Shown: positions 8,433-50,676 of the stretch, in pieces
Numbering within the stretch: the stretch's first letter is position 1
Layout: each line of letters begins with the position of its first letter
Source: Alphaproteobacteria bacterium
GTDB lineage: Bacteria; Pseudomonadota; Alphaproteobacteria; UBA11073
Assembly: GCA_013289145.1 (NCBI GenBank)
Contig: JABDAM010000003.1
Location: forward strand, 27,301-91,300
Direction of reading: 5' to 3'
Length of the DNA stretch: 64,000 bases
Translations under genes and position numbers: made by a program
Notes under the pieces: model-generated
What the model saw: only the letters and a program-made list of their open reading frames with translations
The model's database searches: none
What the model was told of the DNA's origin: nothing

Positions 8433-8789
8433 TTATCGCGGCAAGGGAACGCGTTCCACAGGCAGATAGCGGTGGCGGTGGCGGTGCAGCGCTTCAGCCA
8501 GAAATTCTTTGATCAGGGCGGTATAAGGTATATCCTCCACCATACCGATGGCGCGGATTTCATTCAGTAAAGGCCGCGGCAGACGCAGGGATACAACCTC
8601 CGTCGGCTGTGCGGTGCGGGGTGTAATGTGGATGCCGATGTCGGCGAGGGTAAGAGGTTTTGATAGGTCGGCAAAATCTGTCAGGTCAGTGTAATCGTAA
8701 TCTGTGATTTCCCGCAAAACTTCCTTCTTGGGTGCGCGCGACTTTTTGTGGGTGGGTTTAATGCCAGATTTTTTGCGACTTTTTTTCAT
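8433..8789 (-). CDS. brnA: BrnA-type antitoxin (RHH/CopG-like C-terminus)
   Basis: 118 aa lying immediately downstream of, and overlapping, a DUF497/BrnT gene. The C-terminal VSLRLPRPLLNEIRAIGMVEDIPYTALIKEFLAEAL matches the BrnA pattern. Confidence 0.7.
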   Translation of the reverse strand: MKKSRKKSGIKPTHKKSRAPKKEVLREITDYDYTDLTDFADLSKPLTLADIGIHITPRTAQPTEVVSLRLPRPLLNEIRAIGMVEDIPYTALIKEFLAEALHRHRHRYLPVERVPLPR

Positions 8790-9054
8790 CGTATAACTTC
8801 CTTTCTTTGCGCGATGCCGGACGAGCGGTTATCACGCGTATCTTGCCATTGCGCCGGGTGAAGCCGACCATCAGTAATCTGTTGTCGTTTGAGAAGCCCA
8901 GCATTCCAAACCGCTTTTCATGTGCGGAGTGAAGCATATCGGGATAGACGAGAAGATGGGGATCCGCAAAGGCGCTTTCGGCTTCGGCAGCGTTGACACC
9001 GTGCTTTTCCTCATTCTTCTGCCGGTTCCATTGGTCCCAGTCAAAGACAATCAT
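8758..9054 (-). CDS. brnT: BrnT (DUF497) ribonuclease toxin
   Basis: 98 aa reading FDWDQWNRQKNEEKHGVNAAEAESAF...IRVITARPASRKERKLY, which is the DUF497 signature. The toxin-first gene order is typical of BrnTA. Confidence 0.8.
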   Translation of the reverse strand: MIVFDWDQWNRQKNEEKHGVNAAEAESAFADPHLLVYPDMLHSAHEKRFGMLGFSNDNRLLMVGFTRRNGKIRVITARPASRKERKLYDEKKSQKIWH

Positions 9055-16975: not shown

Positions 16976-17344
16976 TTATAGCTTGCTCGGCGGGTAGTCC
17001 TGCATCAGCTCCCGGATTCTGCCGCGCAAAGGCAAAAGAACGTCAATAGCGAAATTCCACGCCATCTGCACATTGATATGAAAATATTCATGAATAAATT
17101 CATTGCGCGTATCCACCAAATCAAGCCATGGAATATCAGAAGCAATTTGATCGATTTGATGGTTGCGGAGCAAATGCCGGCTAGCTTCGCCGATGACTTC
17201 GATGGTTTTAATAAAGGCCAGCCGACGTTCGATGCTATTTTCAATTTCTTGCCGTCCGTCGCGGGTCAGCATTTCCAGCCAGCTTAATGCTGCGTCGACG
17301 TCAAACAACCAGTTGAATATTTGCCGCTGCGATGATTTTTTCAT
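16976..17344 (-). CDS. hepT: HepT-type HEPN toxin (DUF86)
   Basis: 122 aa with the Rx4HxY motif (RNEFIHEY) and IEVIGEA. It overlaps the upstream MNT gene by 4 nt. Confidence 0.8.
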   Translation of the reverse strand: MKKSSQRQIFNWLFDVDAALSWLEMLTRDGRQEIENSIERRLAFIKTIEVIGEASRHLLRNHQIDQIASDIPWLDLVDTRNEFIHEYFHINVQMAWNFAIDVLLPLRGRIRELMQDYPPSKL

Positions 17345-17661
17345 ATGGCGGTGATGTCGTCCGCGATTTCATCCTGAATGCGGATCAGGCTGGGCGGGCT
17401 GGCCAGATCGACTTGGCGGCCGAGAAAAGTTTGTAATGCGCGTTTAAGGCGCACCAAATCCAGATAGGAACGGTCGGGGGCAAAGTCGGCAATCATATCG
17501 ATATCGCTGTCTGGGGTTTCTTCGCCACGCGCGACAGAGCCGAAGACGCGCAGATTGCTGGCGCCATATTGTGCCGCAAGTTCCGTAATTTCATCTCGGC
17601 GGGTTTTGATTTGCTCAAGCAGCATGAGCTTAATTATATCAAAGCTTGCCGCAAAAGCCAA
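17341..17661 (-). CDS. mntA: MNT-type nucleotidyltransferase antitoxin
   Basis: GS-x10-DxD motif FGSVARGEETPDSDIDM. The start is ambiguous: a TTG at 17661 lies 10 nt after the nrdB stop, and an ATG lies at 17625. Confidence 0.8.
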   Translation of the reverse strand: MAFAASFDIIKLMLLEQIKTRRDEITELAAQYGASNLRVFGSVARGEETPDSDIDMIADFAPDRSYLDLVRLKRALQTFLGRQVDLASPPSLIRIQDEIADDITAI

Positions 17662-18682: not shown

Positions 18683-19105
18683 TTAATTCCGTTTGTTGAG
18701 TTGTTGAACTTTTTGTTTGAGAAGCTGATAGCCTGCATTTAGCAGGGTTGAATAGTCTTTCTCAATATGTTGGCTAATTTTTTCTAAATCAGGCGGGGAG
18801 TATTCATGTGCTAGCGTATTTCGGTCACTGTGCATTTCAAACCAGCCTTCGCTTTTAGGAAGAAGGCCATTTGTCATGCCAATTTCCAAAGTCTCTTTGG
18901 GGAAATTGCTTTTAGGTTCGTCCAGGTAAGCAATAATAAGCCTAGTCAACTGCCGTGTCATTTCATAGGCAAGACGAAAGCGGCTGGCTAATGCTTCGCG
19001 GTATAATTTGTTTTCGCGTTCTGCTTCAATCGCATTCAAATCCTGAATGGCGGCTGTCAGGTCTGTGAAAACTTCATTAATCAGTTCAAGGCGTTCAGCG
19101 GACAT
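18683..19105 (-). CDS. HEPN nucleotidyltransferase-substrate-binding protein (HI0074-like), putative toxin
   Basis: Rx4HxY motif RNTLAHEY. The ATG at 19105 is preceded by GGGAGAG; the ORF track's TTG start is at 19129. It overlaps the MNT gene upstream. Confidence 0.75.
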   Translation of the reverse strand: MSAERLELINEVFTDLTAAIQDLNAIEAERENKLYREALASRFRLAYEMTRQLTRLIIAYLDEPKSNFPKETLEIGMTNGLLPKSEGWFEMHSDRNTLAHEYSPPDLEKISQHIEKDYSTLLNAGYQLLKQKVQQLNKRN

Positions 19106-19427
19106 AAAGCGCTCTCCCTTCTTTTTCAATTATTTTTCTTAAAGCTGGGCGCGCGTGCGCCAGATTAACGCAGTCGATTTTCGCCAGCTTATCTGACGCA
19201 TTCACAATATCCGTCAGTTTCCGCCATATGACGTGATCTGCGGTTGAATCCATTTCAAAGGCCAAATCCACATCCGAAAATTTATGAATTTTTCCAGTTG
19301 CATAGGAGCCAAATAAAACAATTTTCATAATTTGCGGAAAAACCAGTGCTAGATTACGCACAATCTCCCGCAGCCAGGGCTCAAGCCCTTCGTCGTTAAT
19401 CGTAATGGTGCGGGTTTCGGTGAGCAT
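19095..19427 (-). CDS. Nucleotidyltransferase (HI0073/MNT-like), putative antitoxin
   Basis: 110 aa with the motif LFGSYATGKIHKFSDVDLAFE. Confidence 0.75.
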   Translation of the reverse strand: MLTETRTITINDEGLEPWLREIVRNLALVFPQIMKIVLFGSYATGKIHKFSDVDLAFEMDSTADHVIWRKLTDIVNASDKLAKIDCVNLAHARPALRKIIEKEGRALYVR

Positions 19428-19467: not shown

Positions 19468-19568
19468 TGTCACCCCGGCCTTGTGCCGGGGTCTGTCTCG
19501 ACGTTAGGGCGATGCTTCAGAATGTGTGATTGCGGCGCCGCAGACCCCGGCACAAGGCCGGGGTGACA
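19468..19568. repeat. Nested palindromic element of the GTCAYCCCGG family (copy 2)
   Basis: tgtcaccccggccttgtgccggggtctg (19468..19495) is a perfect inverted repeat of cagaccccggcacaaggccggggtgaca (19541..19568). Each arm is itself a hairpin (ccccggc...gccgggg). Confidence 0.85.
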
Positions 19569-19574
19569 GACCTT

Positions 19575-21907: not shown

Positions 21908-22444
21908 TTAGCGGGGTATGTGAGGGACTTCCTGTGGTTTTTGAGCCGCAGAGATTTGAATCCTGCCTTTGGAATCAGTGGTCAGTTTTTTCGCCTTAAT
22001 CCATTCCGCAACTTTTTCCGCAAAGGCTCCTTGCGGTTCTTGGGGATTATCACTCGTGCGGACTTCGCGGACTTGTTCCAAAGTCATCCCTTTTACCATC
22101 GCGCCGAAAATCCGGTTTCGTTGTGGATGATCGCCTTCTTTGGGTCTGGGGTCACCAGCATCCTCTTTGCTGCCTAAAAGATAATCAGCCAGAGTTATCC
22201 AAAGGCGGGTATTTTCGACGTTTAATGCCGCAACTCTTTGTCCTGGTGTTTTTGAATTTAGATATTCAACGATCGCATTCGCATAAGTTTCAGAGTTCAA
22301 ATTTTTCTTTCCATCAGGATCGCCGGCCAAAGTGCGAAAGAGAACGTTGAAAGAGATCTGCCCAGAAGGGCCGCATTTTGACGTAATTTGATGCGTCGCC
22401 AAATATCCGGCCATAAGGCTGGAACAACGTTTTAATATGCCCAT
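21908..22444 (-). CDS. Hypothetical protein (orphan)
   Basis: 178-aa open frame, AT-richer than its neighbours, with its own downstream hairpins. I recognise no motif. Confidence 0.5.
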   Translation of the reverse strand: MGILKRCSSLMAGYLATHQITSKCGPSGQISFNVLFRTLAGDPDGKKNLNSETYANAIVEYLNSKTPGQRVAALNVENTRLWITLADYLLGSKEDAGDPRPKEGDHPQRNRIFGAMVKGMTLEQVREVRTSDNPQEPQGAFAEKVAEWIKAKKLTTDSKGRIQISAAQKPQEVPHIPR

Positions 22445-22534: not shown

Positions 22535-23191
22535 TTAATGCTTTTGCGCGGGCGGCGTGCTGTCGGCCAGGTGGAATTCGGCGGAGATGTCGAGTTTTAC
22601 CTCGTCGCCCAAACCTGGTAAAAAGCCCGTCATGCCGAAATCGGAACGTTTGATTGCGCCCGTCGCGGTAAAGCCCATGGTTTGCGCGTTGATCATCGGC
22701 ATCACGCCGCCGCCGACGAAATGGACATCCAGGGTGACGGGTTTCGTCACGCCGTGAATCGTCAGATCGCCCGTCATGGTGCCGTGGTCGGTGCCGAGAG
22801 CGGTCAGGGTTTTGCTGGCAAACGTAATGTCGGGGTATTTCGCCGCGTCAAAAAATTCGAGGCTTTGCAAATGGCCGACGAGTTTTTCGCTATTCACCGC
22901 GACGCTGGCGACTTTAATAGTGACGTTGAGTTTGGATGTTTCAATCGCCTTGGGATGGAAAATCATCTGGCCGGAAATGTCGTTAAACCCGCCCGCGTAA
23001 TTGCTGAAGCCCATGTGGTTGATGAAAAAAATCGTATGCGCGTGGCTGGTGTCCAGATTGTAAATGCCTTCTGGCATCTGGCGCGGATCGTGGATGGTGC
23101 CCGCGACGGGTAGTTCCGCTGCCATGGCGGGGCCAAAATTAGATAGGGTGATGAAAAGGGCGGTGGCGGCGGGGAGAGAGGTGAGGCGCAT
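22535..23191 (-). CDS. YceI-family periplasmic polyisoprenoid-binding protein
   Basis: YceI-like YNLDTSHAHTIFFINHMGFSNYAGGF...LTIHGVTKPVTL. The start is set at MRLTSLPAATALFITLSNFGPAMA (signal peptide); the ORF track extends to 23257. Confidence 0.8.
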   Translation of the reverse strand: MRLTSLPAATALFITLSNFGPAMAAELPVAGTIHDPRQMPEGIYNLDTSHAHTIFFINHMGFSNYAGGFNDISGQMIFHPKAIETSKLNVTIKVASVAVNSEKLVGHLQSLEFFDAAKYPDITFASKTLTALGTDHGTMTGDLTIHGVTKPVTLDVHFVGGGVMPMINAQTMGFTATGAIKRSDFGMTGFLPGLGDEVKLDISAEFHLADSTPPAQKH

Positions 23192-23360
23192 GAGGAGGTC
23201 CGGGGCTGGGTGGTGAGGAAGATATAGCACGTTCCTGTCGTCCGACCAGTCTGTCATCCCGGCCCATGGTTTTCACCAAAGGGAGACGTAAAAAACTTGC
23301 TTTTTATTGGGGTTATTAGATAAAAAAGGAACTGAGTAATATTTTCAGGAGACATTATAT

Positions 23361-24179
23361 ATGAGCTTTAGAGACTGGCGCCGCAGGGCGGCTGCGCATT
23401 TTCGCCGCAAGGATACGGAACTGCTGGGTTATGAAGATCTTTCAAATTATTCCGGATTTGATTGGAGCACTGCACAGCCCCAAAAGTTGAAAAATCCAAA
23501 ATATGATGCGCTGTTTGGAAAATTAATGAATAACCAACTGGATGAAGAAGCTCGCGCAATCATAGATAATATGATCCATGATTATACTAATATTGACTAT
23601 AAGACGCCCGATGAAAAGATTATTCCCTGGGCAAGATTGCAAACTCAAATGTTTAAATTTGCTGCCAAAGACTGGCCGCAAGAGGTGCGAACTTATAAAT
23701 TAACACTGGAAAGTTTGACGCTTGAAAAGCCGATAAGGGTGAAGGAGAAAAAAGCATTTCCAGTCGTGCTGGATATTGAAGGTTTTACCTATGATACAGA
23801 AGAGTTGGAGCAAACCTGGGGCGTTAAGCAGGCAAGGCGTAAAGGGGCAGAGGAAAGCCTTGCCGGGGGTAAAGACAAAATGTTGGCAGAAGGTAATCTG
23901 GGTGGTTTGTCGTTTTGGGAAGGCGTGCGGCCTTCAAGTGAATCTGAAGAGCGGATTGCCAGATTTGAGAGAGAAATTGATAAAACCCAAATTTTTCTGA
24001 TTCCGTCCGGGGCGGTTATTTTACGTATGCAACTAACCGCAAACGATGCCGCGCCGAACCCGTATCAACAAAATTTCTATCTCATCCGCGAGCCGGAGTA
24101 TCTGGAGCCGTTTTTCGGCGTTGCGCCGCAGCCGGTTGTGCCCAAGGGGCCCGTGGTAGCGCCGCCGGTGCCGGTTTAG
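23361..24179 (+). CDS. Hypothetical protein, paralog A of a tandem pair
   Basis: 272 aa, colinear with ORF 24326..25135 (RRAAAHFRRKDTELLGYEDLSNY and LEPFFGVAPQPVVPKGPVVAPPVPV). AGGAG lies upstream of the start. Confidence 0.65.
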   Translation: MSFRDWRRRAAAHFRRKDTELLGYEDLSNYSGFDWSTAQPQKLKNPKYDALFGKLMNNQLDEEARAIIDNMIHDYTNIDYKTPDEKIIPWARLQTQMFKFAAKDWPQEVRTYKLTLESLTLEKPIRVKEKKAFPVVLDIEGFTYDTEELEQTWGVKQARRKGAEESLAGGKDKMLAEGNLGGLSFWEGVRPSSESEERIARFEREIDKTQIFLIPSGAVILRMQLTANDAAPNPYQQNFYLIREPEYLEPFFGVAPQPVVPKGPVVAPPVPV

Positions 24180-24325
24180 CGGCTAGGCCGAACGCACCAT
24201 TTTTTCTGGTTGGAGCTTGCCTCGCGAAGCCCTGGGTTGGGGGCAACGTAGCATCCCAAAAAACTTGCTTTTTGCCCGGGCTGTTTGGTAAAAGTACGCA
24301 ATCATACTTAACAGGAGGTTATCAC

Positions 24326-25135
24326 ATGGGCTCTAGAGATTTGAATCATAAACGGGCTGCGCGTTTTCGCCGTGAAGATACAGAGCTTGTCGGATTCGAC
24401 GGGTTGGCAAACTATTTTGACTGGAACGGCGCGGATGTCGTGACATTTAAGGACGCACAGCATGCAAAAGTTTTTCAACAATTGGTCGGTAATAATTGGA
24501 GTTTTGAGGACGAGGATGCGTCTGCCGATTTAGATAAAATATCAAGTCAAACGATTGATGAAGATATCCTTGAAAGCGCCAAAATAGCAGTGGAATTCTT
24601 TCTGGGCGCATCAGACGAATGGCCTGAAGAGGCAAAAAAATATACACTTACACTAGATAAAATCGTAATCGATAATCCGATTAGAATTAAATGGGCGTAT
24701 AAAGGCAATATGACAAATCTGAATATTAAAGGTTTTATTTCTGACGAAGAAAGCATTGAAATGACTTGGGAAGATAAAATGGCCAGACGTAAACACCAAG
24801 AGAAAACATCAGATGAGGCCAAGGATGAATCATTGATGGCAGGTAACTTAAGACATTTATCCTCTCTTGAAAAAGTTTTCCCCAGTGACGAAAAAGATGA
24901 ACGCGTTGAAGGATTCCGCAGGGAATTTGCTGTTTCCAAAATATATTTCGTCACATCGGACGCGCACATTCTGCGATTGCGTTTGCGGGGGCCTGACAAT
25001 GCGCCGAAGTCCTATGAACGCAACATCTATTTCATCCGCGATCCGGAACAATTGGAGCCGTTTTTTGGCGTTGCGCCGCAGCCGGTTGCGCCCAGCGGGC
25101 CGGTTGTAACGCCACCTCCGCCGGTGCCGGTTTAA
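24326..25135 (+). CDS. Hypothetical protein, paralog B of a tandem pair
   Basis: The start is set at MGSRDLNHKRAARFRREDTELVGFDGLANY (AGGAGG upstream); the ORF track starts at 24272. The C-terminus LEPFFGVAPQPVAPSGPVVTPPPPVPV matches paralog A. Confidence 0.65.
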   Translation: MGSRDLNHKRAARFRREDTELVGFDGLANYFDWNGADVVTFKDAQHAKVFQQLVGNNWSFEDEDASADLDKISSQTIDEDILESAKIAVEFFLGASDEWPEEAKKYTLTLDKIVIDNPIRIKWAYKGNMTNLNIKGFISDEESIEMTWEDKMARRKHQEKTSDEAKDESLMAGNLRHLSSLEKVFPSDEKDERVEGFRREFAVSKIYFVTSDAHILRLRLRGPDNAPKSYERNIYFIRDPEQLEPFFGVAPQPVAPSGPVVTPPPPVPV

Positions 25136-25196
25136 TAGCTAGGCAGAGCGCACCATCTTTTCCGGCTGGATGAGGCGGCCGGATTTTGCGGGGTCG

Positions 25197-25538
25197 CTAA
25201 TCACCCAAATGATCCGGCCAATGCATCGCCGTGTGCAAAATACGGATGATGCGGATGCCGCCGTCGATTTGCCGGTATAAAATGCGGTGGCCGTGCGCGT
25301 TGCGGCGCTTGCGGAATTTGGCGATATAGATGCGGATGCCGGGATGGCCGGTGGCGGGTTTGCCAAGGTGCGGGTCGTTGGCCAATTCCGCAAAGATATT
25401 ATCCAGGAACGCCATATAGCGTTCGGCCTGAATTTTACCCCACATGCGGGCGGTGGTTTTATCAATGGCCGTGAATTCTGCTGCCGCGGCGGGCGAAAAA
25501 TCGATTAATGCGCCGTTTCGGCAATCATGCTCCGCCAT
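25197..25538 (-). CDS. parE: RelE/ParE-family toxin
   Basis: 113 aa with a ParE-like pattern (IDFSPAAAAEF..I......GKIQAERYMAFLDNIF..LANDPHLGKP....PGIRIY......HRILYRQIDGGIRIIRILH). It overlaps the upstream antitoxin gene. Confidence 0.7.
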   Translation of the reverse strand: MAEHDCRNGALIDFSPAAAAEFTAIDKTTARMWGKIQAERYMAFLDNIFAELANDPHLGKPATGHPGIRIYIAKFRKRRNAHGHRILYRQIDGGIRIIRILHTAMHWPDHLGD

Positions 25539-25693
25539 GACGAGCTTTCCCGGTTTTTGCGGGCGAAGGCTTTGACCTCTTCCCAGGTGTAAAACACGCC
25601 GGATTTTTCGGACTCTAATCCCTCCAATAACGCTGCCTCTTCATCGGGGCTGAGGGTATAGGTTTCTTCTTCAGTTTGACGGTCTTTGGGCAT
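25505..25693 (-). CDS. Putative antitoxin partner of the ParE-type toxin
   Basis: 62 aa starting at MPKDRQTEEETYTLSPDEEAALLEGLES... (ATG at 25693). It is preceded by an extended -10 and a palindromic operator. The family assignment is uncertain. Confidence 0.55.
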   Translation of the reverse strand: MPKDRQTEEETYTLSPDEEAALLEGLESEKSGVFYTWEEVKAFARKNRESSSWRSMIAETAH

Positions 25694-25705
25694 GGCTGTT
25701 CCTCT

Positions 25706-25724
25706 GTTTGCTATTATAACAAAC
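25706..25724 (-). promoter_or_regulatory. Candidate TA promoter/operator: near-perfect 19-bp palindrome overlapping an extended -10
   Basis: gtttgctattataacaaac is palindromic apart from one arm position. On the minus strand it reads TGTTATAAT (TGnTATAAT) about 12 nt upstream of the antitoxin ATG. Confidence 0.5.
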
Positions 25725-25745
25725 TTTTTTGTCAAAAGCCAGCGG

Positions 25746-27134
25746 TTACGCCGATCGCACCATCTTTTCCGGCTGGATAAGATCATCGAATTTCGCGGGG
25801 TCGATGAGGTTGAGTTCGGCGGCGGCTTCTTTCAGGGTGATGTCTTTTTTGTGCGCGAGTTTGGCGATTTTGGCGGCGTTGTCGTAGCCGACGTGAGGGT
25901 TCAGCGCCGTCACCAGCATCAAACTTTCGCGCAGGAGTTTTTGGATGCGCGGTTCGTTGGGCAAAATCCCGACGACGCAATTTTCTGTGAAGCTGCGCGC
26001 GGCGTCGGCGAGCAGGCGGATGGATTGCAACACATTATATATGATGACGGGTTTGAAGACATTGAGTTCGAAATGCCCCGTCGCGCCGGCCATGGTGACG
26101 GCGACGTTGTTGCCCATGACTTGCGCGCAAACCATTGTCAGCGCCTCGGATTGCGTCGGGTTCACTTTGCCGGGCATGATGGATGATCCGGGTTCATTTT
26201 CGGGCAGGAGAATTTCGCCGATCCCGCAACGCGGACCGGAGCCGAGCATGCGGACATCGTTCGCGATTTTCATGAGTGAGCAGGCGACGGTGTTGAGTTC
26301 GCCCGATGCCTCCACCAACGCATCATGCGCGGCGAGGGCTTCGAATTTATTCGGCGCGGTGACGAAGGGCAGTTTGGTGATTTCCGCGGTTTGTTTCGCG
26401 AATTCTTCCGCAAACCCTTTTTTTGCGTTTAATCCCGTGCCGACGGCGGTGCCGCCTTGCGCGAGTTCCAGCAAACGCGGCAAAGGCGTTTTCACGCGCG
26501 CGATGCCGTATTCGATTTGTTTGGCGTAACCGCCGAATTCCTGGCCGAGCGTGAGCGGCACGGCATCCTGCAAATGCGTGCGGCCGATTTTGATGATGCG
26601 GTCGAATTCTTTTGCCTTCGCGTCGAGGGCTTTATGCAAACCTTCGAGCGCGGGGATCAGGGCATGCGTGATTTGTTCCACGGCGGCGATATGCATCGCG
26701 GTGGGGAAACTGTCGTTCGATGATTGGCCGCGATTGACGTGGTCGTTCGGGTGCACGGTTTTTTCGCCCGGCTGGCCGCCCAAAATTTGCATGGCGCGGT
26801 TGGCGATGACTTCATTCGCATTCATGTTGGTCTGCGTGCCGGAGCCGGTTTGCCAGACGACCAGCGGAAAATGATCGTCGAGTTTACCCGCCGCGACTTC
26901 ATCCGCCGCCGCGACGATTGCGTTGCCGAGTTTTTCATCGAGTTCGCCGAGTTTCATATTCGCGAGCGCGCTGGCTTTTTTTTGAATCCCGAATGCGCGG
27001 ATCAAAGGCAATGGCATGCGCTGATCCCCGATTTTAAAATTCTCCCGCGACCGCTGGGTTTGCGCGCCCCACAGTTTGTCGGCGGGGACCTCAACCGGGC
27101 CCATGGTGTCGTGTTCGATGCGGATGTTGGTCAT
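25746..27134 (-). CDS. fumC: Class II fumarate hydratase
   Basis: 462 aa with the signature [16 protein letters not shown] and full-length colinearity with FumC. Confidence 0.95.
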
Positions 27135-27190: not shown

Positions 27191-27661
27191 TTATGGCTGT
27201 AGGTCGCGGTTAGGGAGTGAACCAAACAGTATGTTATGCATTTGTGCAGCAGCAGCCCTGAGGTATTCATGCCCCCCGCGATCTATTAGCGCGGTAAGGA
27301 TTTCCTGTATTTTGGGCCGGTCTTTATCTTTCCAAAAGTGTCCGCGGAATTTGTCTTGATCGTTCGTAAGCCAGCTATATATCGCAAAGCATGTTTTAGA
27401 ATCCGGATCCGTGCCGAGCCGAGTGACGATTTCAGCGTCCATTTCCAGGGAAGCATACCCGATCAATCGAAAGCAGGCTGTTCTGTTGTCCGAATGTTCG
27501 CCATCCAGAAGGGCGCGGATAAATTGCTCTCGTTCTTCTGACGTTAATTGATCGGATTTATCGCGGAATGAATCGATTGCTCCTTGCCGCGTGAAGCGTT
27601 CCACGGAATGCGATTGCTCGATCAGGTCTTGTAATAGCGCAGATGGGCGAGGGATGGTCAT
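27191..27661 (-). CDS. Hypothetical protein
   Basis: 156 aa. It starts 2 nt after the stop of the upstream ORF 27664..28422, so the two probably form an operon. I recognise no motif. Confidence 0.5.
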   Translation of the reverse strand: MTIPRPSALLQDLIEQSHSVERFTRQGAIDSFRDKSDQLTSEEREQFIRALLDGEHSDNRTACFRLIGYASLEMDAEIVTRLGTDPDSKTCFAIYSWLTNDQDKFRGHFWKDKDRPKIQEILTALIDRGGHEYLRAAAAQMHNILFGSLPNRDLQP

Positions 27662-27663
27662 AT

Positions 27664-28422
27664 TCAGGCGCGCGGGGCCAGCGCGGCGGGTTGGTGTTTC
27701 GCGGGCACAAAGCGCGGTTGCCGCTGCATGGACCAGGCGGACATGTTTTGCTGGAATTTATAGTAATGATCGAAATCGGGAATTTGATACTCGCTGTCCA
27801 GGCAAAAACCGATGGTCGTCATTTTGCCGCTTTTGCAATCGAAAACCATTTGAACGGATGTGGCGGGCGCATCCTCGCCCGCCGGAAGATCGAGGTTTAT
27901 GCCCTTTAGGCTTTTTTGAGAATATGCCAGATGGCTGAGGCTGGTTTTGATATTCCTGTCTCTCATCAGGTTACACAGATAACTTTGAAAATGATCGATG
28001 CCGGTGAAGGGGGAAAATTTTTTCAGGCTTGCTGTGCCCGGATAGGGGCCGGCGAGTTTTTTTCCTTTAAACAATTCTTCAAACGCAGTCTGGAATTTTC
28101 CGGTTTGAGAGGCGTTTAAAGTTTCCCGGAAATTCAAAGCCGGAACACAGGATGTAATGAAATCCACAGTGACAAAAGGCGCTTCCTTTGAGTGCTCGCT
28201 GATGGTGACCGTCAGGTGATTTGCTTTTTGTTCTGAAAAAACCGTCGAAAAAGACAGCTTGGAAATGGAATAGCCCGCATCTTTCCAGGCGGGTTGGGTA
28301 AGCATGGTTTTGATAATCCCCAGCGCGTCGGGGGCGGATATGGCGGTTGGGCTGTTAGCCTGCGCGCCCGCCATCGCGGCGGCGGCAGAGAGCGCAAGAG
28401 CGGCGGAAAGTCTGGATCGCAT
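27664..28422 (-). CDS. Hypothetical secreted protein
   Basis: 252 aa with signal peptide MRSRLSAALALSAAAAMAGAQA. Confidence 0.55.
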   Translation of the reverse strand: MRSRLSAALALSAAAAMAGAQANSPTAISAPDALGIIKTMLTQPAWKDAGYSISKLSFSTVFSEQKANHLTVTISEHSKEAPFVTVDFITSCVPALNFRETLNASQTGKFQTAFEELFKGKKLAGPYPGTASLKKFSPFTGIDHFQSYLCNLMRDRNIKTSLSHLAYSQKSLKGINLDLPAGEDAPATSVQMVFDCKSGKMTTIGFCLDSEYQIPDFDHYYKFQQNMSAWSMQRQPRFVPAKHQPAALAPRA

Positions 28423-28605: not shown

Positions 28606-29124
28606 ATGGCAAAAGCCGCTAAAAAGGATTTGAAAACAGCTAAAACTTCGGCTGATGCGCGCTCCGCGCGCCGGGCCAATACCCGCGAACGGGCGGAGCG
28701 GGCAACGCGCAAGATGGCGGCGCGGGAGCCGGTGGTTGAAACGCAGTCGCTGCGGCCGACGCGGGATATAGAGGGTTTGCAGAAAATCGCGCGTTTGATG
28801 AGCGGGCTGTCGCTGCGCGCGGCCAATGCTTATGCGGATGCGCGGATGGGCGAAGGCGACAAATATGTCCGCATCGCCGCCGCCGGATATCGTGAAGCCA
28901 TGGGAATTTTCGATGAAATTATTAAGGCCAATCGCGTCTTGAAGGAAGCCGAGCGCGAGCATTTAATAACAGTCATGAATGGCATCAAATTACTGCACGT
29001 GCGCATCCAGGATTATAACGTCGCCTGCAAGGATGAAGCATGGCGCCGCGAACACCAGGAAGAATGGAACCCGCACCCGCTGGGCGAGGATAAGCAGGGG
29101 TTTTTTGCGAAGGAACGGTTTTAG
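28606..29124 (+). CDS. Hypothetical protein (basic N-terminus)
   Basis: 172 aa with AGAGGA upstream of the ATG. The stop codon abuts the octamer-array repeat. Confidence 0.55.
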   Translation: MAKAAKKDLKTAKTSADARSARRANTRERAERATRKMAAREPVVETQSLRPTRDIEGLQKIARLMSGLSLRAANAYADARMGEGDKYVRIAAAGYREAMGIFDEIIKANRVLKEAEREHLITVMNGIKLLHVRIQDYNVACKDEAWRREHQEEWNPHPLGEDKQGFFAKERF

Positions 29125-29240
29125 TAGACGAGCGGACGAGCAGACGAGCGGACGAGAATAAAAAATTTCGTATGAGAGATTCATTTCATACATAAACCGC
29201 CAGAAAATCTCGTCTACGCGTCCGCTCGTCCGCTCGTCTG
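29125..29240. repeat. Inverted octamer-array element (copy A, intergenic/3'-terminal)
   Basis: The left arm is tagacgag-cggacgag-cagacgag-cggacgag (29125..29156). The right arm is ctcgtcta-cgcgtccg-ctcgtccg-ctcgtctg (29209..29240). The spacer is 52 bp. Confidence 0.85.
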
Positions 29241-30146
29241 CTGGATCGCCTCATCCAGTTTGTGATCCTCAATCCCCGCCGGTTCCTGGTGCAAAATGAT
29301 TTGCGCGGTGGGGTAGCGGCGGCGCAGGGCGTCTTCGAGCATTTCGGTGATGTGGTGGGCGTCGTGCAATGTCAGGTCGCCGGGCATTTCGACGTGGGCG
29401 TCGATGAAAACGTCGGGGCCAGACTGGCGCGTGCGGAGGTCGTGCATGCCGGAGACGCCGTGGTGCGCCAGGATGATTTCGGAAATGATGTGGCGGTCTT
29501 CGTCTTTCATTTCCTTGTCCATCAATTGCTCTGCCGCGCCGCGCGCGAGCTTCCAGGCGGAGAATAAAATATAAAATGAAATCAGCATCGACGCCGCGCC
29601 GTCGAACCGGTCAAAGCCCATGCCGGATATCAGTAGGGAAATAATCACGACGATGTTGACCAGCATATCGTTCATGTAATGCAGAAAATCCGCCTTGATC
29701 GACATGCTGTGCGTGCGGTCGACGACGCGGTGCTGGTAGATCAGCAATGCTAAAATCAGCACACTGGAAATAACCATGATGGTGATGCCGATAGGGGTCG
29801 ATTCCACCGGCTCGGGGGAGAGCAGGCGGGAAAAGGATTGAATTAGAAAATAAATTCCAGATCCCGCGACGAATGCCGCCTGCCCCAGGGTGACGAGCGG
29901 TTCAGCCTTGCCATGGCCCCAGCGGTGGTTTTTATCCGGCGCGCGGTGCGCGACGCGCAGGGCGTAAAAAGCCGTCGCGGCGGCGATGGCATCGCCGACG
30001 GATTCCAGCATGGATGCCAGCATCACGAGCGCATTGGTCTGAAAATAGGCGTACAATTGCAGTGCAATAATCGTCAGGCCCACGGCCAGGCTGACCAGGG
30101 CGGCTTTTTGGGTTTGGTGTCCGCGTTCGCGGTGGGAGAGGGACAT
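29214..30146 (-). CDS. Cation diffusion facilitator (CDF) family metal efflux transporter
   Basis: 310 aa with six TM helices and a C-terminal cytoplasmic domain (CzcD/FieF-like). The last residues QQTSGRADA and the stop codon are encoded by the repeat arm. Confidence 0.85.
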   Translation of the reverse strand: MSLSHRERGHQTQKAALVSLAVGLTIIALQLYAYFQTNALVMLASMLESVGDAIAAATAFYALRVAHRAPDKNHRWGHGKAEPLVTLGQAAFVAGSGIYFLIQSFSRLLSPEPVESTPIGITIMVISSVLILALLIYQHRVVDRTHSMSIKADFLHYMNDMLVNIVVIISLLISGMGFDRFDGAASMLISFYILFSAWKLARGAAEQLMDKEMKDEDRHIISEIILAHHGVSGMHDLRTRQSGPDVFIDAHVEMPGDLTLHDAHHITEMLEDALRRRYPTAQIILHQEPAGIEDHKLDEAIQQTSGRADA

Positions 30147-37417: not shown

Positions 37418-37987
37418 TTATCGTGCAGCAGGTGCGGCAGGCGCAGCAGGTGTTGAACCGGCAGGCATTTTGCTGTTGTTTGCAGGCGCGCTAGCAGGCA
37501 TTGGAGCCGTTGCAGGCGTTGTTGCGTTAGGCGCAGAGGCTACCGTAGGTGCCGGTGTCGCAGCAGGCGCAGGCTCAGCATTCGGTGCGGAAGCCATTGC
37601 AGGCGCAGACGGCGCGTTTGGAGCGGTTGGCGCAGACGTGTTGTTGTTAGATGCGGCAGTCATCGCGTTATTGCTGGCAGGAGACGCAGCAGATGCAGCG
37701 GTCGTGCTGGACGGCGTGTTAGGGCCAGTGGTCGTCAGCGTGTTTTGCTTTTCGATGCTGGTCAAAGTCGTAGCGCCGATGCCGGGAACGTTTTTCAAGT
37801 CGCTAGCCGATTGGAAAGGGCCGTGTTGATTGCGGTAAGCAACGATTGCTTGCGCTTTTGCAGGGCCGATGCCGTTCAGCTGTTGCAGCTGTTCAGGTGT
37901 CGCCGTGTTGATATTAACCGTAGCAGCCATAGCTGCGCCCGCGGTCAGCATTACTGCTGCAACCAGGGCAAGTGCGAATTTACGCAT
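37418..37987 (-). CDS. comEA: ComEA-like helix-hairpin-helix DNA-binding protein with a long A/P/S/N-rich tail
   Basis: A signal peptide is followed by VNINTATPEQLQQLNGIGPAKAQAIVAYRNQHGPFQSASDLKNVPGIGATTL (a tandem HhH). The C-terminal ~110 aa are low complexity. Confidence 0.8.
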   Translation of the reverse strand: MRKFALALVAAVMLTAGAAMAATVNINTATPEQLQQLNGIGPAKAQAIVAYRNQHGPFQSASDLKNVPGIGATTLTSIEKQNTLTTTGPNTPSSTTAASAASPASNNAMTAASNNNTSAPTAPNAPSAPAMASAPNAEPAPAATPAPTVASAPNATTPATAPMPASAPANNSKMPAGSTPAAPAAPAAR

Positions 37988-38113: not shown

Positions 38114-38557
38114 TCAGATCAAGCGCACAAAGTAGTTTTGAACAGACGCAAAATCGTAATAGTAACCCTGCCATCCGGCGCGTTTTGCCGTTGCGCTCAA
38201 TGCTTTTCTTGCTTTGAATATTTCAGGTTTCTGAAGGTCTGAGGGCAGATAGTAAACGGCAATTTCCTTTCCGTTTATCAAAACCAAAAATAACGGAAAA
38301 TATATTCCTGCCGCCATCCTTTCGGATTGCGGCTTCCAGGCCGCGGATAAAACCCGTTTGGGCGGTTTTTGAATGTCTTTGACGTTTTGTGTTTTGACTT
38401 GCGCCAAATAGCCGCAGAAATCACATATAATATCAGCGCATTTGAAATTGGGCGGCAGCAATTTTAATGTTTGCGAACGTTTGCACCTGGGACAGGCGCA
38501 TTTTTTTGCAATGAGCTGTTCCCCTCGTTTCCCCAGTTCTTGTTTGGCTGTTGCCAT
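38114..38557 (-). CDS. Hypothetical Cys4 zinc-ribbon protein, possibly a PD-(D/E)xK-like nuclease
   Basis: 147 aa with GKRGEQLIA, then CxxC-x19-CxxC (CPRCKRS...CDFCGY), then ADIICD...AQVK, which resembles a D...(E/Q)xK motif. Confidence 0.45.
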   Translation of the reverse strand: MATAKQELGKRGEQLIAKKCACPRCKRSQTLKLLPPNFKCADIICDFCGYLAQVKTQNVKDIQKPPKRVLSAAWKPQSERMAAGIYFPLFLVLINGKEIAVYYLPSDLQKPEIFKARKALSATAKRAGWQGYYYDFASVQNYFVRLI

Positions 38558-43018: not shown

Positions 43019-44434
43019 ATGGCGATTGATATTCTAATGCCCGCTTTATCGCCTACGATGACCGAGGGCAAAATCGCCCGTTGGTTGGTGAAGGAGGGCG
43101 ACGCGATTAAATCCGGCAAAGTCCTATGCGAAATCGAAACCGATAAAGCCACGATGGAAGTTGAGGCGGTGGATGAGGGTACGCTGTTAAAAATCGTCGT
43201 GCCGGAAGGCGCGGAAGGTGTTGCGGTGAATAGTGTGATCGCGGCGCTGGGCGCGAAGGGCGAAGTATACGAGCAGACGAGCAGACGAGCAGACGAGCAG
43301 ACGAGAAAAAGTACTGATGCCGTCGCGAATGCCCCTGTTATTGATCCGGGGTGTATTCCTGGAATGTCGCCCGCCAACCAAACGCAACAAATCTCGTCTG
43401 CTCGTCTGCTCGTCTGCTCGTCTGCTGATGAGGAAAAATTCTATTCTGGCGGCACGAAAACCATGACCGTGCGCGAAGCGCTCCGCGAAGCCATGTCCGA
43501 AGAAATGCGCCGCGACCCGACCGTGTTTTTAATGGGTGAAGAAGTCGCGGAATATAACGGCGCGTACAAAGTGTCGCAGGGCATGCTGGATGAATTCGGC
43601 CCAGAGCGCGTGATTGATACGCCGATTACCGAAATGGGTTTCGCGGGTCTGGGCGTTGGTGCGGCGTTTGGCGGCCTGAAACCCATTGTTGAATTTATGA
43701 CAATGAACTTTTCGATGCAGGCGATTGACCACATCGTGAATTCCGCCGCCAAGACATTATATATGTCCGGCGGCCAGATGGGTTGCCCGATTGTTTTTCG
43801 TGGTCCCAACGGCGCGGCGGCGCGCGTGGGTGCGCAGCACAGCCAATGTTTCGCGTCCTGGTACGCGCATATTCCAGGCCTGTATGTGCTGGCGCCGTGG
43901 AACGCGGCGGACGCGAAAGGCCTGATGAAGGCCGCGATCCGCAATCCAAACCCCGTCGTGTTTTTGGAAAACGAAATCATGTATGGCCAGTCGTTCGAAG
44001 TGCCGGTGCATGATGATTTCGTCCTGCCCATCGGCCGCGCGAAAATTGAACGCGCGGGCAAGGATGTCACCATCGTCGCTTACGCCATCATGGTGGGCAA
44101 GGCGTTGCAGGCGGCGGAAGAATTATGGAAACTCGGCATCGATGCGGAGGTGATTAACCTGCGCTCCATACGTCCGCTCGACGTTGAAACCATCGCCGCG
44201 AGTGTGCGCAAAACCAACCGCCTGGTGAGCGTTGAAGAAAGCTGGCCGTTTGCCGGCATCGGCTCCGAAATGGCGGCCTTGATGATGGAGCATTGTTTTG
44301 ATGATCTCGACGCGCCGATTGCGCGCGTATGTCATAAGGATGTGCCGTTGCCCTATGCCGCGAACCTGGAAAAACTCGCCTTGCCGCAGATTGAAGATAT
44401 CGTCGCGGCCGCGCGGGGAGTTTGCAACCGATGA
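43019..44434 (+). CDS. pdhB: Pyruvate dehydrogenase E1 beta subunit with an N-terminal lipoyl domain
   Basis: A lipoyl domain ([14 protein letters not shown]) is followed by a linker and then the E1-beta core ([15 protein letters not shown]...). The linker is encoded by the octamer-array repeat. Confidence 0.95.
43267..43427. repeat. Inverted octamer-array element (copy B, in frame inside pdhB)
   Basis: Four perfect cagacgag units (43274..43305) face four perfect ctcgtctg units (43393..43424) across an 87-bp spacer. This is a 32-bp perfect inverted repeat. Confidence 0.9.
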
Positions 44435-45756
44435 GCATCGAAATTTTAATGCCCGCCCTGTCGCCGACGATGACGGAGGGGAAACTCGCGCGCTGGCTGG
44501 TAAAGGAAGGCGACGAAATTAAATCCGGAAAAGTTTTGTGCGAAATTGAAACCGACAAAGCGACCATGGAAGTTGAGGCGGTGGATGAGGGGACATTATT
44601 AAAAATCGTCGTGCCGGAAGGCAGTGAAGGCGTTGCGGTGAATTCAGTGATTGCGGCATTGGGCAAGGCTGGAGAAAAGTACGAAGCTAAGCAGACGAGC
44701 GGACGAGCAGACGAGCAGACGAGCAAGCCTGCAGCTGCATTAACACCACTTTCAAATATTTCCGCCCAATCATCGCAAGCACTATCACAAGATTTCGTCT
44801 ACTCGTCTGCTCGTCTGCTCGTCACTAACCAAGGCCGCATCGCTGCGTCACCCGTCGCAAAACGCATCGCGCAGGAACGCGGCGTGAATTTATACGCCGT
44901 CATCGGTACGGGCCCGAACGGGCGGATTGTGAAGGAAGACGTGTTGAACGCGGTTCAGCAGACGAGCAGACGAGCAGACGAGCAGACCAGTGCAACAAAA
45001 TTGCCTACGCCAGCGCAAGCGATTCCTGCCGCTGCCGCAGGGCCGAACGCGAAACAACTCGCAGATTTGCTTGGCCAGAAATATACCGAAGTTAAAAATT
45101 CGCCCGTCCGCAAAATCATCGCCAAACGCCTGACGGAATCCAAACAAACAGTGCCGCATTTTTATCTGACGGTGGATTGTGAACTCGATGCGCTCCTGGC
45201 CGCGCGCAAAGCGTTGAATGAAAAAGAAAACGCCAAGATTTCCGTCAACGACGCGATCATCAAGGCGGTCGCCCTGGCACTGCGCGAAGTGCCCGCCGCC
45301 AACGCCGCCTGGACGGAAGAGGCGATTTTGAAATATACCGATGTGGATATTTCTGTGGCGGTCGCCACGGCGGACGGTTTGGTCACGCCGATTATAAAAG
45401 GCGCGGACGGCAAAAGCCTGGTGCAAATCTCAACCGAAATGCGCGACTTGGCCGCCCGCGCGCGCGACAATAAATTAAAACCCACCGAATTCCAGGGCGG
45501 CGGATTTACGATTTCCAACCTCGGCATGTTCGGCATCAAAAATTTCGCGGCCATCATCAACCCGCCGCAGGGTTGCATCCTGGCCGTCGGTGCTGGCGTG
45601 AAAAGCGCGGTGGTAAAGGATGATAAACTTGCGATTGCAACGGTGATGAACGTGACGCTATCAGTCGATCACCGCGTGGTGGACGGCGCCGTGGGCGCGG
45701 AATTTTTGGCGGCGTTTAAGAAATTGATTGAAGCACCGTCAGTGTGGGTTAAATAA
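44431..45756 (+). CDS. pdhC: Pyruvate dehydrogenase E2 (dihydrolipoamide acetyltransferase)
   Basis: The ATG overlaps the pdhB TGA (ATGA). It has a lipoyl domain, a PSBD ([16 protein letters not shown]) and a catalytic domain ([10 protein letters not shown]). Confidence 0.95.
44692..44823. repeat. Inverted octamer-array element (copy C, in frame inside pdhC linker 1)
   Basis: The left arm is cagacgag-cggacgag-cagacgag-cagacgag (44692..44723). The right arm is ttcgtcta-ctcgtctg-ctcgtctg-ctcgtc (44794..44823). Confidence 0.9.
44959..44990 (+). repeat. Solo octamer array (copy D, in frame inside pdhC linker 2)
   Basis: Three perfect cagacgag units plus cagaccag. No inverted partner lies nearby. 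Confidence 0.8.
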
Positions 45757-50595: not shown

Positions 50596-50676
50596 TATAA
50601 ATAATGCCTGAGCTCGATAATTAACCGGACTATATCCAATTTGGACGACCGAATGCAAGAATTTTAACAGAACAGC

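Follow-up and report, generated by a model that had tools for sequence, protein, structure and literature searches.

Displaced copies of the fumC 3' end beside variable cassettes in an alphaproteobacterium: a locus that looks like recombination scarring

Introduction

How do toxin–antitoxin (TA) pairs on the chromosome and lineage-specific orphan genes come to lie in tight gaps beside core genes? Such arrivals can rarely be followed, as in most cases nothing is left to show them. A 64-kb stretch of DNA from an uncultured alphaproteobacterial lineage (hereafter, the window) raises this question at fumC, where copies of the 3' end of the gene are interspersed with accessory genes. A first-pass annotation had read the arrangement as an integration hot spot without a visible integrase, entered by elements that each bring a replacement fumC 3' end, and had named tandem duplication as an alternative for the two displaced copies. 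Here we ask which process best accounts for these copies, by comparing the window with the contigs or runs L162, L164, L165, L166, L168, X2 and X4.

Results

The 3' end of fumC occurs three times in the window, always on the minus strand and in the orientation of fumC itself (Table 1), and each copy encodes QPEKMVRSA followed by a stop codon. The three copies are real: a repeat finder gathered the tails into one family, in agreement with a degenerate codon pattern for QPEKMVRSA and stop, which matched exactly three sites with 0 mismatches and had 0 matches in 100 shuffles. No match to the fumC tail is expected by chance. The layout given in the first-pass annotation, with the ParE/antitoxin pair between the live end and copy 2 and paralog B between copies 2 and 3, proved right, as did the distinction it drew between the TAG stops of the displaced copies and the TAA stop of the live end. 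The extent that it gave for copy 2, roughly 57 nt, is corrected here to 58 nt.

Table 1. Features of the fumC locus, with positions in the window
Feature	Position	Strand	Remarks
yceI-like gene	22535..23257	-	Left flank of the variable interval; Pfam YceI 1.5e-43
Paralog A promoter motif	23290..23325	+	AAAAAACTTGCTTTTT; repeat shared with paralog B
Paralog A, 272 aa	23361..24179	+	44% identical to paralog B; convergent on copy 3, 3 nt between stops
Displaced fumC tail, copy 3	24183-24215	-	33 nt; TAG stop
Spacer, 41 nt	24216..24256		Between copy 3 and paralog B promoter; read as holding the second-event junction
Paralog B promoter motif	24257..24293	+	CAAAAAACTTGCTTTTTGCC; repeat of 23290-23325
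Paralog B, orphan, 269 aa	24326..25135	+	AT-rich body; ORF with AGGAGG ribosome-binding site; convergent on copy 2, 3 nt between stops
Displaced fumC tail, copy 2	25139-25196	-	58 nt; TAG stop; one base past the ParE stop codon (25197-25199)
Hairpin (8 bp) and UUUU in copy 2	25161..25187	+	Paralog B strand; RNA fold z = -1.76; absent from live end
ParE-family toxin, 113 aa	25197..25538	-	Pfam ParE_toxin (PF05016) 1.5e-15
Putative antitoxin, 62 aa	25505..25693	-	Overlaps the ParE start by 34 nt
TA promoter region	25694..25745	-	Right after the fumC stop; extended -10 element TGTTATAAT, as read from the sequence
Live fumC end	25746-25803	-	Last 58 nt of fumC; TAA stop
fumC, class II fumarate hydratase, 462 aa	25746..27134	-	Intact; Pfam Lyase_1 (8e-118), FumaraseC_C

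Copy 2 differs from the live end at 12 of 57 coding nucleotides. Copy 3 differs from copy 2 at 6/33 positions, and all five differences that remain when the boundary codon is left out fall at third codon positions. The inner ends lie at different points, codon -19 for copy 2 (at the ParE stop) and codon -11 for copy 3. Past 24215 the similarity ceases to be significant (shuffle p = 0.64), and the 41-nt spacer that begins there shows no significant resemblance to fumC, the ParE end or the sequence upstream of paralog A. The live end and copy 2 of the window and the live end of L162 have in common, without a single difference, a 23-nt core, ATCCAGCCGGAAAAGATGGTGCG, with more variable sequence on either side; copy 3 has three mismatches to this core. 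A 40-aa ORF (24183-24305) also ends in copy 3. Copy 2 recurs in independent samples, L162 and the moss run X2. Copy 3 is known only from the source sample, from the window and a 1,076-nt Logan contig of the same run; this sample, the sole source of copy 3 and of the tandem paralogs, has an amplification-like coverage bias. The nearest public relatives of the fumC product are 79% identical at the amino acid level, and none of 159 fumC loci of other taxa carried the tail of the window or a comparable downstream duplicate of its own tail.

The cargo next to the live end has the make-up of a putative type II ParDE-like module, a toxin with a small, co-oriented and overlapping antitoxin gene upstream. 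The toxin matches solved ParE structures (7r5a, 8c24 and 3kxe in the PDB, down to 1.8e-6); the antitoxin had no Pfam, NCBIfam or PDB match. Position and overlap of the two genes are conserved in L162, L165, L166 and L168. The promoter region, which is identical to that of L162 at 46 of 52 positions, was missed by a simple sigma-70 scan because there is no -35 element at the right spacing. The insert is minimal, running for 549 nt from the promoter to the ParE stop, with the fumC stop and the ParE stop as its ends, and it is flanked by 58-nt direct repeats (25139-25196 and 25746-25803). The other insert is equally spare, a single gene with its promoter. L162 shows the same repeat-flanked arrangement, over 49 nt at 96% identity. 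Like other chromosomal modules of this type, which move horizontally as minimal cassettes, the pair combines ParE, a small overlapping upstream antitoxin and a promoter of its own, just after a housekeeping gene; unlike the usual ones, it has a visible footprint of arrival, the 58-nt repeat, and three cores at one orthologous site. The same ParE family is present in at least four unrelated contexts without a flanking duplication, and three more TA pairs in the window, in similar positions, lack such repeats.

Paralog B had no family match in Pfam, NCBIfam, PADLOC or PHROGs, and a search of 1.84 billion representative proteins recovered nothing beyond paralogs A and B; its AF2 model has a pLDDT of 40. 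With a convergent paralog ending 3 nt away from each displaced copy, paralog and tail make up a repeated unit with a shared promoter motif (at 23290 and 24258). A paralog-type motif is also found in X4, which has no TA pair, with a 20/20 match 695 nt from the fumC end. The two units in the window are colinear (promoter motif, CDS, 3-nt spacer, tail), but their divergence is very uneven, where a plain tandem duplication would have left it uniform. For the two paralogs, dS reaches saturation over the body yet stands at 0.16-0.28 in their final 23-37 codons and the tail, and GC3 rises from 0.38-0.43 in the body to 0.68-0.73 in the final 37 codons.

Empty and occupied sites among related strains, on which the first-pass annotation had proposed to check its reading, were indeed found. 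The window, L162 and X2 are occupied by a TA pair, and X4 and L164 are empty. L162 (fumC dS 0.25) and the moss metagenome X2 carry the same ParE/antitoxin insert, with a 58-nt tail at the same junction (L162:1009-1066 is the orthologue of copy 2). Past this displaced tail, L162 carries not the paralog but another AT-rich orphan gene, g4. X4, a soil relative whose fumC is ~90% identical at the DNA level, has one cassette of ~700 nt with a paralog-type promoter. Three unrelated AT-rich orphan genes adjoin the fumC tail in different genomes, and three very different TA cores occupy one orthologous site in the window, L162 and X2. The fumC 3' flank is a strain-variable spot.

Divergence across the locus is mosaic, with the TA core and the bodies of the paralogs saturated or high at synonymous sites and the flanks at a dS of ~0.2. 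Between the window and L162, dS is 0.25 for fumC and 1.5 for the antitoxin; within ParE it is 1.28 over the N-terminal 68 codons and 0.28 over the C-terminal 45. Copy 2 differs between the two genomes at 10/57 positions, spread over all codon positions and including a change of M to I in L162. Such a spread points to neutral drift and fits the dS of 0.25. The comparison among the three copies within the window has a different character: in the last 10 codons all of the substitutions, at least eight, are synonymous and at the third position (P = 0.0002 under pure neutrality; ~0.003 when the null takes one copy to be dead and one to be live). This is the pattern expected if the copies diverged while they were live fumC ends.

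The last 10 nt of the tail (third base of Arg, Ser, Ala and stop) come in three types, which follow the adjacent cassette. TCG GCG TAA adjoins the TA pair in the window and in L162, and X2 has no listed difference there. AGT GCC TAA adjoins g4 in L162 and resembles the live AGT GCG TGA of L164, and TCN GCC TAG adjoins both paralogs in the window. The last 10 nt of X4 match neither type of the window. The serine codon has switched family (TCG/AGT) between orthologous displaced copies, and the AGT state is common to the live end in L164. These tail differences fit the earlier suggestion that each insertion brings a replacement 3' end, and it is this part of that proposal that we retain. Over the first 15 codons, the live end and copy 2 were nearly identical when the window and L162 split (6/57 and 12/57 differences now). 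For a live end of donor type, the types of the last 10 nt differ, yet no breakpoint within fumC could be mapped, full-length close relatives being lacking.

Copy 2 of the window contains a hairpin followed by UUUU, created by changes specific to the window, TTC GAC GAC to TCC GGC CGC (four clustered changes). The patch is absent from L162 and, judging from the mismatch count, probably from X2. The hairpin may terminate transcription of paralog B; a simple terminator scan called no terminator at copy 2 or at copy 3, and copy 3 has no stable fold (z = +1.16). Finally, no integrase, recombinase or transposase domain (Phage_integrase, Resolvase, rve, DDE) was found in any ORF of at least ~90 aa in the 64 kb, in line with the earlier remark that no integrase was visible.

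Discussion

The reading that we prefer, with a probability of roughly 45%, is that homology-anchored recombination has displaced the fumC end step by step, at a locus that varies among strains. It draws on the presence of fumC 3' fragments downstream of the intact live gene, in the same orientation and each beside cargo of its own, together with the TA-empty relatives X4 and L164, the mosaic divergence and the absence of recombinase genes from the window. The fragments vary in length (codon -19 versus codon -11), and unequal inner boundaries of 58 and 33 nt are what independent illegitimate joins would yield.

According to this model, the slot after fumC would hold one fast-evolving, AT-rich orphan gene convergent on fumC, and would have gained new DNA twice, with no loss of resident sequence and with the old fumC end moved downstream each time. 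We infer a one-sided homologous mechanism, in which DNA from a related strain, comprising the 3' part of its fumC and the cargo downstream, would pair by homology with the resident fumC on one side and be joined illegitimately on the other, inside the resident fumC and a few codons before its stop. As the incoming fragment supplies a complete new end, fumC would stay intact, its live end now being of donor origin, and the last resident codons would remain behind the cargo as a dead fragment. In the order that seems to us most plausible, paralog B and its promoter would have arrived first, pushing 33 nt (copy 3) and paralog A downstream; the ParE/antitoxin pair would have followed shortly before the window and L162 diverged, and would have cut off 58 nt (copy 2) from the gene. 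The displaced copies would then have drifted neutrally, with copy 2 of the window later gaining its hairpin, while homologous recombination in the 23-nt core and in other conserved flanks would have kept swapping the cargo (g4 in L162, and the three TA cores).

Several points count against displacement. A local duplication at the insertion of the TA pair accounts equally well for copy 2. The model needs a donor with a TA pair directly after fumC, and no such genome, free of a displaced tail, was found. It would take chance to place both illegitimate joins no more than 60 nt from the fumC stop, unless selection removes those that fall further upstream or these went unsampled. Copy 3 and the tandem paralogs come from one sample only. 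Finally, measured rates of homology-facilitated illegitimate recombination (de Vries and Wackernagel 2002, PMC122324; Prudhomme et al. 2002, PMC122325) have always been low (PMC5361080).

Might the locus instead have arisen within a single genome, with no foreign fumC ends at all? We regard this as possible, if rather doubtful. An old tandem duplication of promoter, paralog and at least 33 nt of the fumC end would have been followed by gene conversion of the 3' 150 nt, and the TA pair would have entered separately with a 58-nt target duplication, for example through staggered-break repair or template switching. The colinear paralog units agree with such a history, as do the GCC TAG common to copies 2 and 3, the close similarity of the live end and copy 2 at the split from L162 with neutral drift of copy 2 since then (10/57; dS 0.25), and the failure to find mobility genes; a conversion tract would also explain why dS is 0.16-0.28 in the 3' module of the paralogs and saturated in the body. 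A tandem duplication that included the fumC terminus, as the first-pass annotation had allowed, could indeed have produced copy 3, but the very uneven divergence across the unit means that it would need the later conversion. That copy 3 differs from the others at third codon positions only (5/5 or 6/6; p ~0.01-0.03 under a generous null) is unexpected of a dead copy, and neither the switch between TCN and AGT serine codons in orthologous displaced copies, with AGT being the live state elsewhere, nor the covariation of the last 10 nt with the neighbouring cassette sits well with a purely local origin. The single cassette of X4 indicates that the duplication would not be old in the lineage as a whole, and we know of no mechanism for a clean 58-nt target duplication around a 549-nt insert.

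A site-specific element, as first proposed for this locus, was not borne out by the window, given the want of a recombinase, the minimal inserts and the unequal inner boundaries. In its most general form, the fumC tail would be an attachment site for integrase-less cassettes that carry a fumC-like attP end, accrete in tandem and depend on a tyrosine or serine recombinase whose gene lies in another part of the genome or on a helper element. We consider this improbable, even though the 58-nt direct repeats tightly enclose a compact insert ending at the fumC and ParE stops, the invariant 23-nt core between variable flanks recalls a crossover core with its arms, both occupied and empty sites are found in relatives, and fumC survives intact. 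A single fixed site would not be expected to give inner boundaries of 58 nt in one event and 33 nt in the other. Moreover, the repeat has no apparent inverted recombinase-binding arms and does not resemble a dif site (11/28 matches to the E. coli dif consensus), the assembled contigs of the relevant runs contained no excision joints across the repeats, and flanking duplications are missing both from the other contexts of this ParE family and from the other three TA pairs of the window. The narrower proposal that the last 58 nt of fumC with the 23-nt core are a dedicated site, at which an outside recombinase loads and unloads such cassettes, each with a replacement fumC end, seems to us slightly less probable again. 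Least of all do we expect the displaced copies to have been kept for a function of their own, be it as 3' end or terminator elements of the convergent paralogs or as short translated ORFs. Their position 3 nt from the paralog stops, the hairpin with UUUU on the paralog strand of copy 2 and the perfect conservation of QPEKMVRSA within the window would suit such a role, against which stand the drift of copy 2 at all codon positions, the M to I change in L162, the restriction of the hairpin to the window, the unstable fold of copy 3 and the negative terminator scan at both copies. The small ORFs are unsupported and overlap a promoter or, in another frame, ParE.

Displacement has parallels at rhs, cdi and T6SS effector loci, where displaced C-termini and orphan arrays (Jackson et al. 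2009, PMC2935791; Kirchberger et al. 2017, PMC5361080) are the proposed products of homology-facilitated illegitimate recombination; a homology anchor with an illegitimate end, moving old 3' ends downstream, is the route put forward for arrays of T6SS effectors and Rhs (PMC5361080). Those arrays and the fumC locus alike have an intact gene followed by same-orientation fragments of its own 3' end, variable in length and each with different cargo, which differs among related strains; no dedicated recombinase is apparent, homology would be anchored in a conserved part of the gene, and in both settings the mechanism is deduced. The fumC locus departs from them in that the gene encodes a housekeeping enzyme of the TCA cycle, whose end peptide does not vary from copy to copy. 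Its fragments, at 33 and 58 nt, are tiny and are no re-usable toxin tips, and the cargo is a TA pair and orphan genes in place of toxin tips with immunity genes.

ICESt1/ICESt3 and CIMEs occupy the 3' end of fda in Streptococcus thermophilus (PMC3234194, PMC7563491). There, as at fumC, direct repeats of the gene's 3' end flank the insert, a replacement end keeps the gene intact, tandem arrays of repeats can build up, and some members lack an integrase; tycheposons share these features. Hackl et al. reportedly described, in 2023, tycheposon cargo satellites at tRNA genes. The fumC locus is unlike all these elements in its unequal repeats and in that no integrase was found within 64 kb, and its inserts, at 0.55 and ~0.96 kb, are far below the known members in size.

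The locus reveals no new molecular machine, and looks like recombination scarring, not like a new kind of mobile element. Its value lies in the traces that it keeps: dated, nested gene-end fragments, occupied and empty relatives, and three TA cores. It offers a natural test case for whether cassettes spread through recombination anchored in core genes or through dedicated recombinases, and for how fast a ParE/antitoxin interface turns over in nature. Annotators may take from it that short, intact-looking gene-end fragments beside accessory genes are scars, not genes. Were the attachment-site reading true, this uncultured alphaproteobacterial lineage would have an integron-like or tycheposon-like cassette system anchored at a protein gene with a housekeeping role.

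Displacement calls for a route, such as competence, conjugation or transduction, by which related DNA can enter the cell; a ComEA-like HHH_3 protein (37418-37987) and a pair of CinA paralogs, all encoded in the window, hint weakly at such uptake.

Three copies of the fumC 3' end in the yceI-fumC interval

The first-pass annotation described three copies of the fumC 3' end, and these proved to be genuine. A repeat finder groups the live end (the last 58 nt of intact fumC) and the two displaced tails, copies 2 and 3, into one family, and a degenerate codon pattern for QPEKMVRSA-stop has exactly three matches, with no mismatches and none in 100 shuffles. Neither this tail nor a comparable downstream duplicate of the gene's own tail was present at any of 159 fumC loci from other taxa, which, together with the shuffles, rules out a chance or low-complexity match. 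An assembly artefact is ruled out for copy 2 by its presence in two relatives (contig L162 and sequencing run X2). It is unlikely for copy 3, seen in one sample only, since a repeat-mediated chimera is hard to reconcile with the divergence of the copies and with sequence past copy 3 that is not fumC-like.

Coordinates of the interval between yceI and fumC and of the other toxin-antitoxin (TA) pairs in the window
Feature	Position	Strand	Remarks
fumC	25746-27134	-	intact, 462 aa; Lyase_1 and FumaraseC_C domains
TA promoter region, 52 nt	25694-25745	-	extended -10 TGTTATAAT
Antitoxin-like ORF, 62 aa	25505-25693	-	
ParE-family toxin	25197-25538	-	Pfam 1.5e-15; PDB ParE matches
Copy 2 of fumC end, 58 nt	25139-25196	-	starts one base past ParE stop
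Paralog B, convergent orphan gene	24326-25135	+	stop codon three bases from copy 2 stop
Paralog B promoter motif	24257-24293	+	
Spacer, 41 nt	24216-24256		no origin assigned
Copy 3 of fumC end, 33 nt	24183-24215	-	
Paralog A	23361-24179	+	stop codon three bases from copy 3
Paralog A promoter motif	from 23290		same as that of paralog B
yceI-like gene	22535-23257		divergent
BrnT/BrnA pair	BrnT 8758-9054, BrnA 8433-8789		further type II TA pair
MNT/HepT pair	16976-17661		of this MNT/HepT pair and the next, one is wedged between nrdA and nrdB
MNT/HepT pair	18683-19427		of this MNT/HepT pair and the last, one directly follows nrdB

Neither a longer copy 3 nor a ParE remnant beside it could be recognised, there being no significant similarity beyond 24215 (p = 0.64). 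The displaced copies therefore differ in their inner boundary, which lies at codon -19 in copy 2 and at codon -11 in copy 3. In X4, another relative, the stretch ahead of the promoter motif was rejected as a homologue of the spacer (p = 0.07, out of register). A dif/Xer site was likewise rejected, since tail plus junction match only 11 of the 28 positions of the E. coli dif consensus. Among the titles and abstracts retrieved, none was relevant to fumC as an attachment site.

Relatives carry different cassettes after fumC

Synteny was compared at 160 fumC loci from GTDB genomes and JGI metagenomes. The closest fumC among the matches listed in two large scans was 79% identical in amino acids, and none of the 160 listed loci, all at or below this value, had the paralogs, ParE or yceI near fumC. 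Close relatives, absent among the matches listed in these scans, were recovered by protein searches with ParE and with fumC fragments; exact-protein look-ups for yceI and paralog A returned no record.

The ParE search led to L162, a contig of 1,876 nt from sample ERZ12293633 in which the fumC 3' part has a dS of 0.25 to that of the window. It carries the same promoter, an antitoxin and a ParE, and its junction is as in the window: the ParE stop, a single C and a displaced fumC tail (L162:1009-1066). Beyond this tail, the place of paralog B is taken by g4, an unrelated AT-rich orphan gene. A moss-metagenome contig of 634 nt (X2/X3) shares the arrangement of fumC tail, TA pair and displaced tail, with a TA core of 232 nt that cannot be aligned to the window. 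The 2,360-nt contig X4, from a different soil run (fumC about 90% identical in DNA), has no TA pair; the promoter motif of paralog B recurs there, with a 20/20 match, only 695 nt from the end of fumC, leaving space for one cassette. In L164 (JGI 3300045490), the last 104 amino acids of fumC are 84% identical (dS about 2) and the QPEKMVRSA tail is present, followed, with neither TA pair nor displaced copy, by hairpin repeats and a third unrelated AT-rich orphan gene. GC-rich hairpins (CCTCCCCC...GGGGGAGG) comparable to the hairpin units after nrdA in the window flank the orphan genes of L162 and L164. Thus the presence/absence polymorphism that the first-pass annotation had called for among related strains does exist, with the TA pair in the window, L162 and X2/X3 and none in X4 or L164, and the stretch after fumC is a strain-variable slot.

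The TA core and the paralogs have uneven divergence

Between the window and L162, dS is 0.25-0.28 for the promoter and for the ends of fumC and ParE (45 codons in the latter), but reaches 1.5 in the antitoxin and 1.3 in the first 68 ParE codons. The divergent core takes in the antitoxin together with the initial two thirds of ParE (25343-25693 against L162:515-870). X2 holds a third core, so that three differing TA cores occupy one orthologous site. The core is exchanged, or diversifies, far faster than its flanks, a pattern also seen in the paralogs.

Paralogs A and B share 44% protein identity. Synonymous sites are saturated across the first 226 aligned codons, yet dS is 0.16 and 0.28 over the last 23 and 37 codons, and GC3, which is about 0.4 in the body, rises to about 0.7 in the last part. 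The block of high identity extends beyond the 3-nt spacer and takes in the fumC tail. The unit is not explained by a plain duplication that then decayed uniformly.

Paralogs A and B, g4 and orf168 had no match in Pfam, NCBIfam, PADLOC or PHROGs. Paralog B found no relatives in a search of 5.8 billion clusters, and a two-paralog profile, run exhaustively over 1.84 billion representatives, recovered only the paralogs themselves and one spurious repeat protein. The sole trace of the family outside the source sample is a 166-nt contig of the X2 moss metagenome, aligned at 25002-25038 and matching the 3' part of paralog B at 84% identity. An AF2 model of paralog B was uninformative (pLDDT 40).

Age and type of the fumC tails

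Live end and copy 2 differ at 12 of 57 positions in the window and at 6 of 57 in L162, which dates the TA event to around the split of the two or slightly earlier. To judge from these counts, the two ends must have been nearly identical over their first 15 codons when that event took place. Between copies 2 and 3, 6 of 33 positions differ, which is close to the distance seen in the paralog 3' module, so that the event or conversion relating units A and B is of similar age.

There are signs that the tails were formerly live ends belonging to different alleles. All of the at least 8 substitutions in the last 10 codons of the three window copies are third-position and synonymous (P = 0.0002 if all sites are free, about 0.003 with one constrained and one free copy). 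In their last 10 nt, the tails fall into three types that follow their neighbours. CGR TCG GCG TAA adjoins the TA pair in the window and L162 (X2 has no listed difference there), CGY TCN GCC TAG adjoins both paralogs in the window, and CGG AGT GCC TAA adjoins g4 in L162 and resembles the live end of L164, CGG AGT GCG TGA. The serine is retained despite the switch of codon family, and the last 10 nt of X4 align with neither type from the window. These types fit sequence that came with the neighbouring cassette from another strain.

Origin of the displaced ends

Among single mechanisms, the most economical is one in which recombination anchored within the gene displaces the fumC end; we assign it a probability of roughly 0.45. 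Related DNA carrying a fumC 3' part and cargo would pair with the resident gene and be joined illegitimately a few codons ahead of the resident stop, so that the old end would come to lie behind the cargo; later cargo swaps would proceed by ordinary homologous exchange in the conserved flanks. The crossovers may be placed within a 23-nt core, ATCCAGCCGGAAAAGATGGTGCG, that is identical in the live end and copy 2 of the window and in the live end of L162. Such displacement accounts for fragments of unequal length and a gene that stays intact, for selection-filtered differences and cassette-following end types, and for the lack of a recombinase. The same mechanism has been proposed for Rhs and T6SS effector arrays (PMC5361080). 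Compared with known displacement and accretion scars, the fumC pattern is a small-scale variant: here the gene is a housekeeping one with an end that does not itself vary, and a minimal TA pair plus orphan genes make up the cargo. The displacement reading has weak points in that live end and copy 2 were near-identical at the TA event, that the donor needs a TA pair already beside fumC and that both joins lie within 60 nt of the stop. A history that is purely local, in which an old tandem duplication underwent gene conversion and the TA pair was inserted duplicatively, is somewhat unlikely.

The att-like integration proposed by the first-pass annotation, with cassettes bringing replacement ends, would need a site served in trans and seems distinctly improbable. 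Its remark that no integrase is visible holds: among all ORFs of at least about 90 aa in the 64 kb, none encodes an integrase, resolvase or transposase. Flanking gene-end duplications were found neither at the other three of the four TA pairs in the window nor at ParE homologues from four further genomic contexts. That the displaced copies have a present function is more doubtful still. Copy 2 differs between the window and L162 at 10 of 57 positions, spread 2, 4 and 4 over the codon positions, which matches neutral drift at the background dS of 0.25. Four clustered changes in copy 2 of the window (25161-25187; TTC GAC GAC to TCC GGC CGC) are absent from L162 and, by mismatch count, probably from X2. 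On the strand of paralog B they give rise to an 8-bp hairpin with UUUU after it, which may be a newly arisen terminator. The locus does not point to a new mechanism; it is useful as a natural record of cassette entry into core-gene gaps.

Other features of the window

The window is core chromosome, with genes for efflux, DAHP synthase, polysaccharide export, nrdAB, fumC, aconitase, pyruvate dehydrogenase, lipoyl synthase, flagellar functions and chemotaxis. Several further AT-rich orphans (GC 0.45-0.52) matching no family, among them 21908-22444, 27191-28422 and 28606-29124, are scattered between the core genes and occur to either side of the yceI-fumC interval as well. A ComEA-like HHH_3 protein (37418-37987) and two tandem CinA paralogs (50092-51165) weakly hint at a capacity for DNA uptake; a DpnI-like protein of the Dam-replacing family is encoded at 38114-38557.

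The octamer GACGAGCA/GACGAGCG occurs in inverted arrays that form long intergenic hairpins (29120-29243, 43261-43427, 44679-44828 and 44954-45010) and extend into the 3' ends of flanking ORFs, such as the cation-efflux gene ending ...TSGRADA; they are possibly bidirectional terminators. Just after nrdA (19468-19573), a 27-nt hairpin unit, GTCACCCCGGCCTTGTGCCGGGGTCTG, is present in two inverted copies that resemble REP or MITE elements. In the source-run Logan contigs, whose depths along the window are 224, 274, 163, 35 and 16, a 53-nt unitig (depth 76) links 23451 to the reverse strand of 24497 through 7 nt of microhomology (aattatt; segments 23422-23451 and 24468-24497). Amplification bias together with an inverted chimera is the probable cause, rather than a real inversion or structural polymorphism. 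Finally, a direct repeat of 248 nt with 81% identity (43025-43272 and 44437-44684) represents the lipoyl domains encoded by the E1-beta and E2 genes in a 2-oxoacid (likely pyruvate) dehydrogenase cluster.
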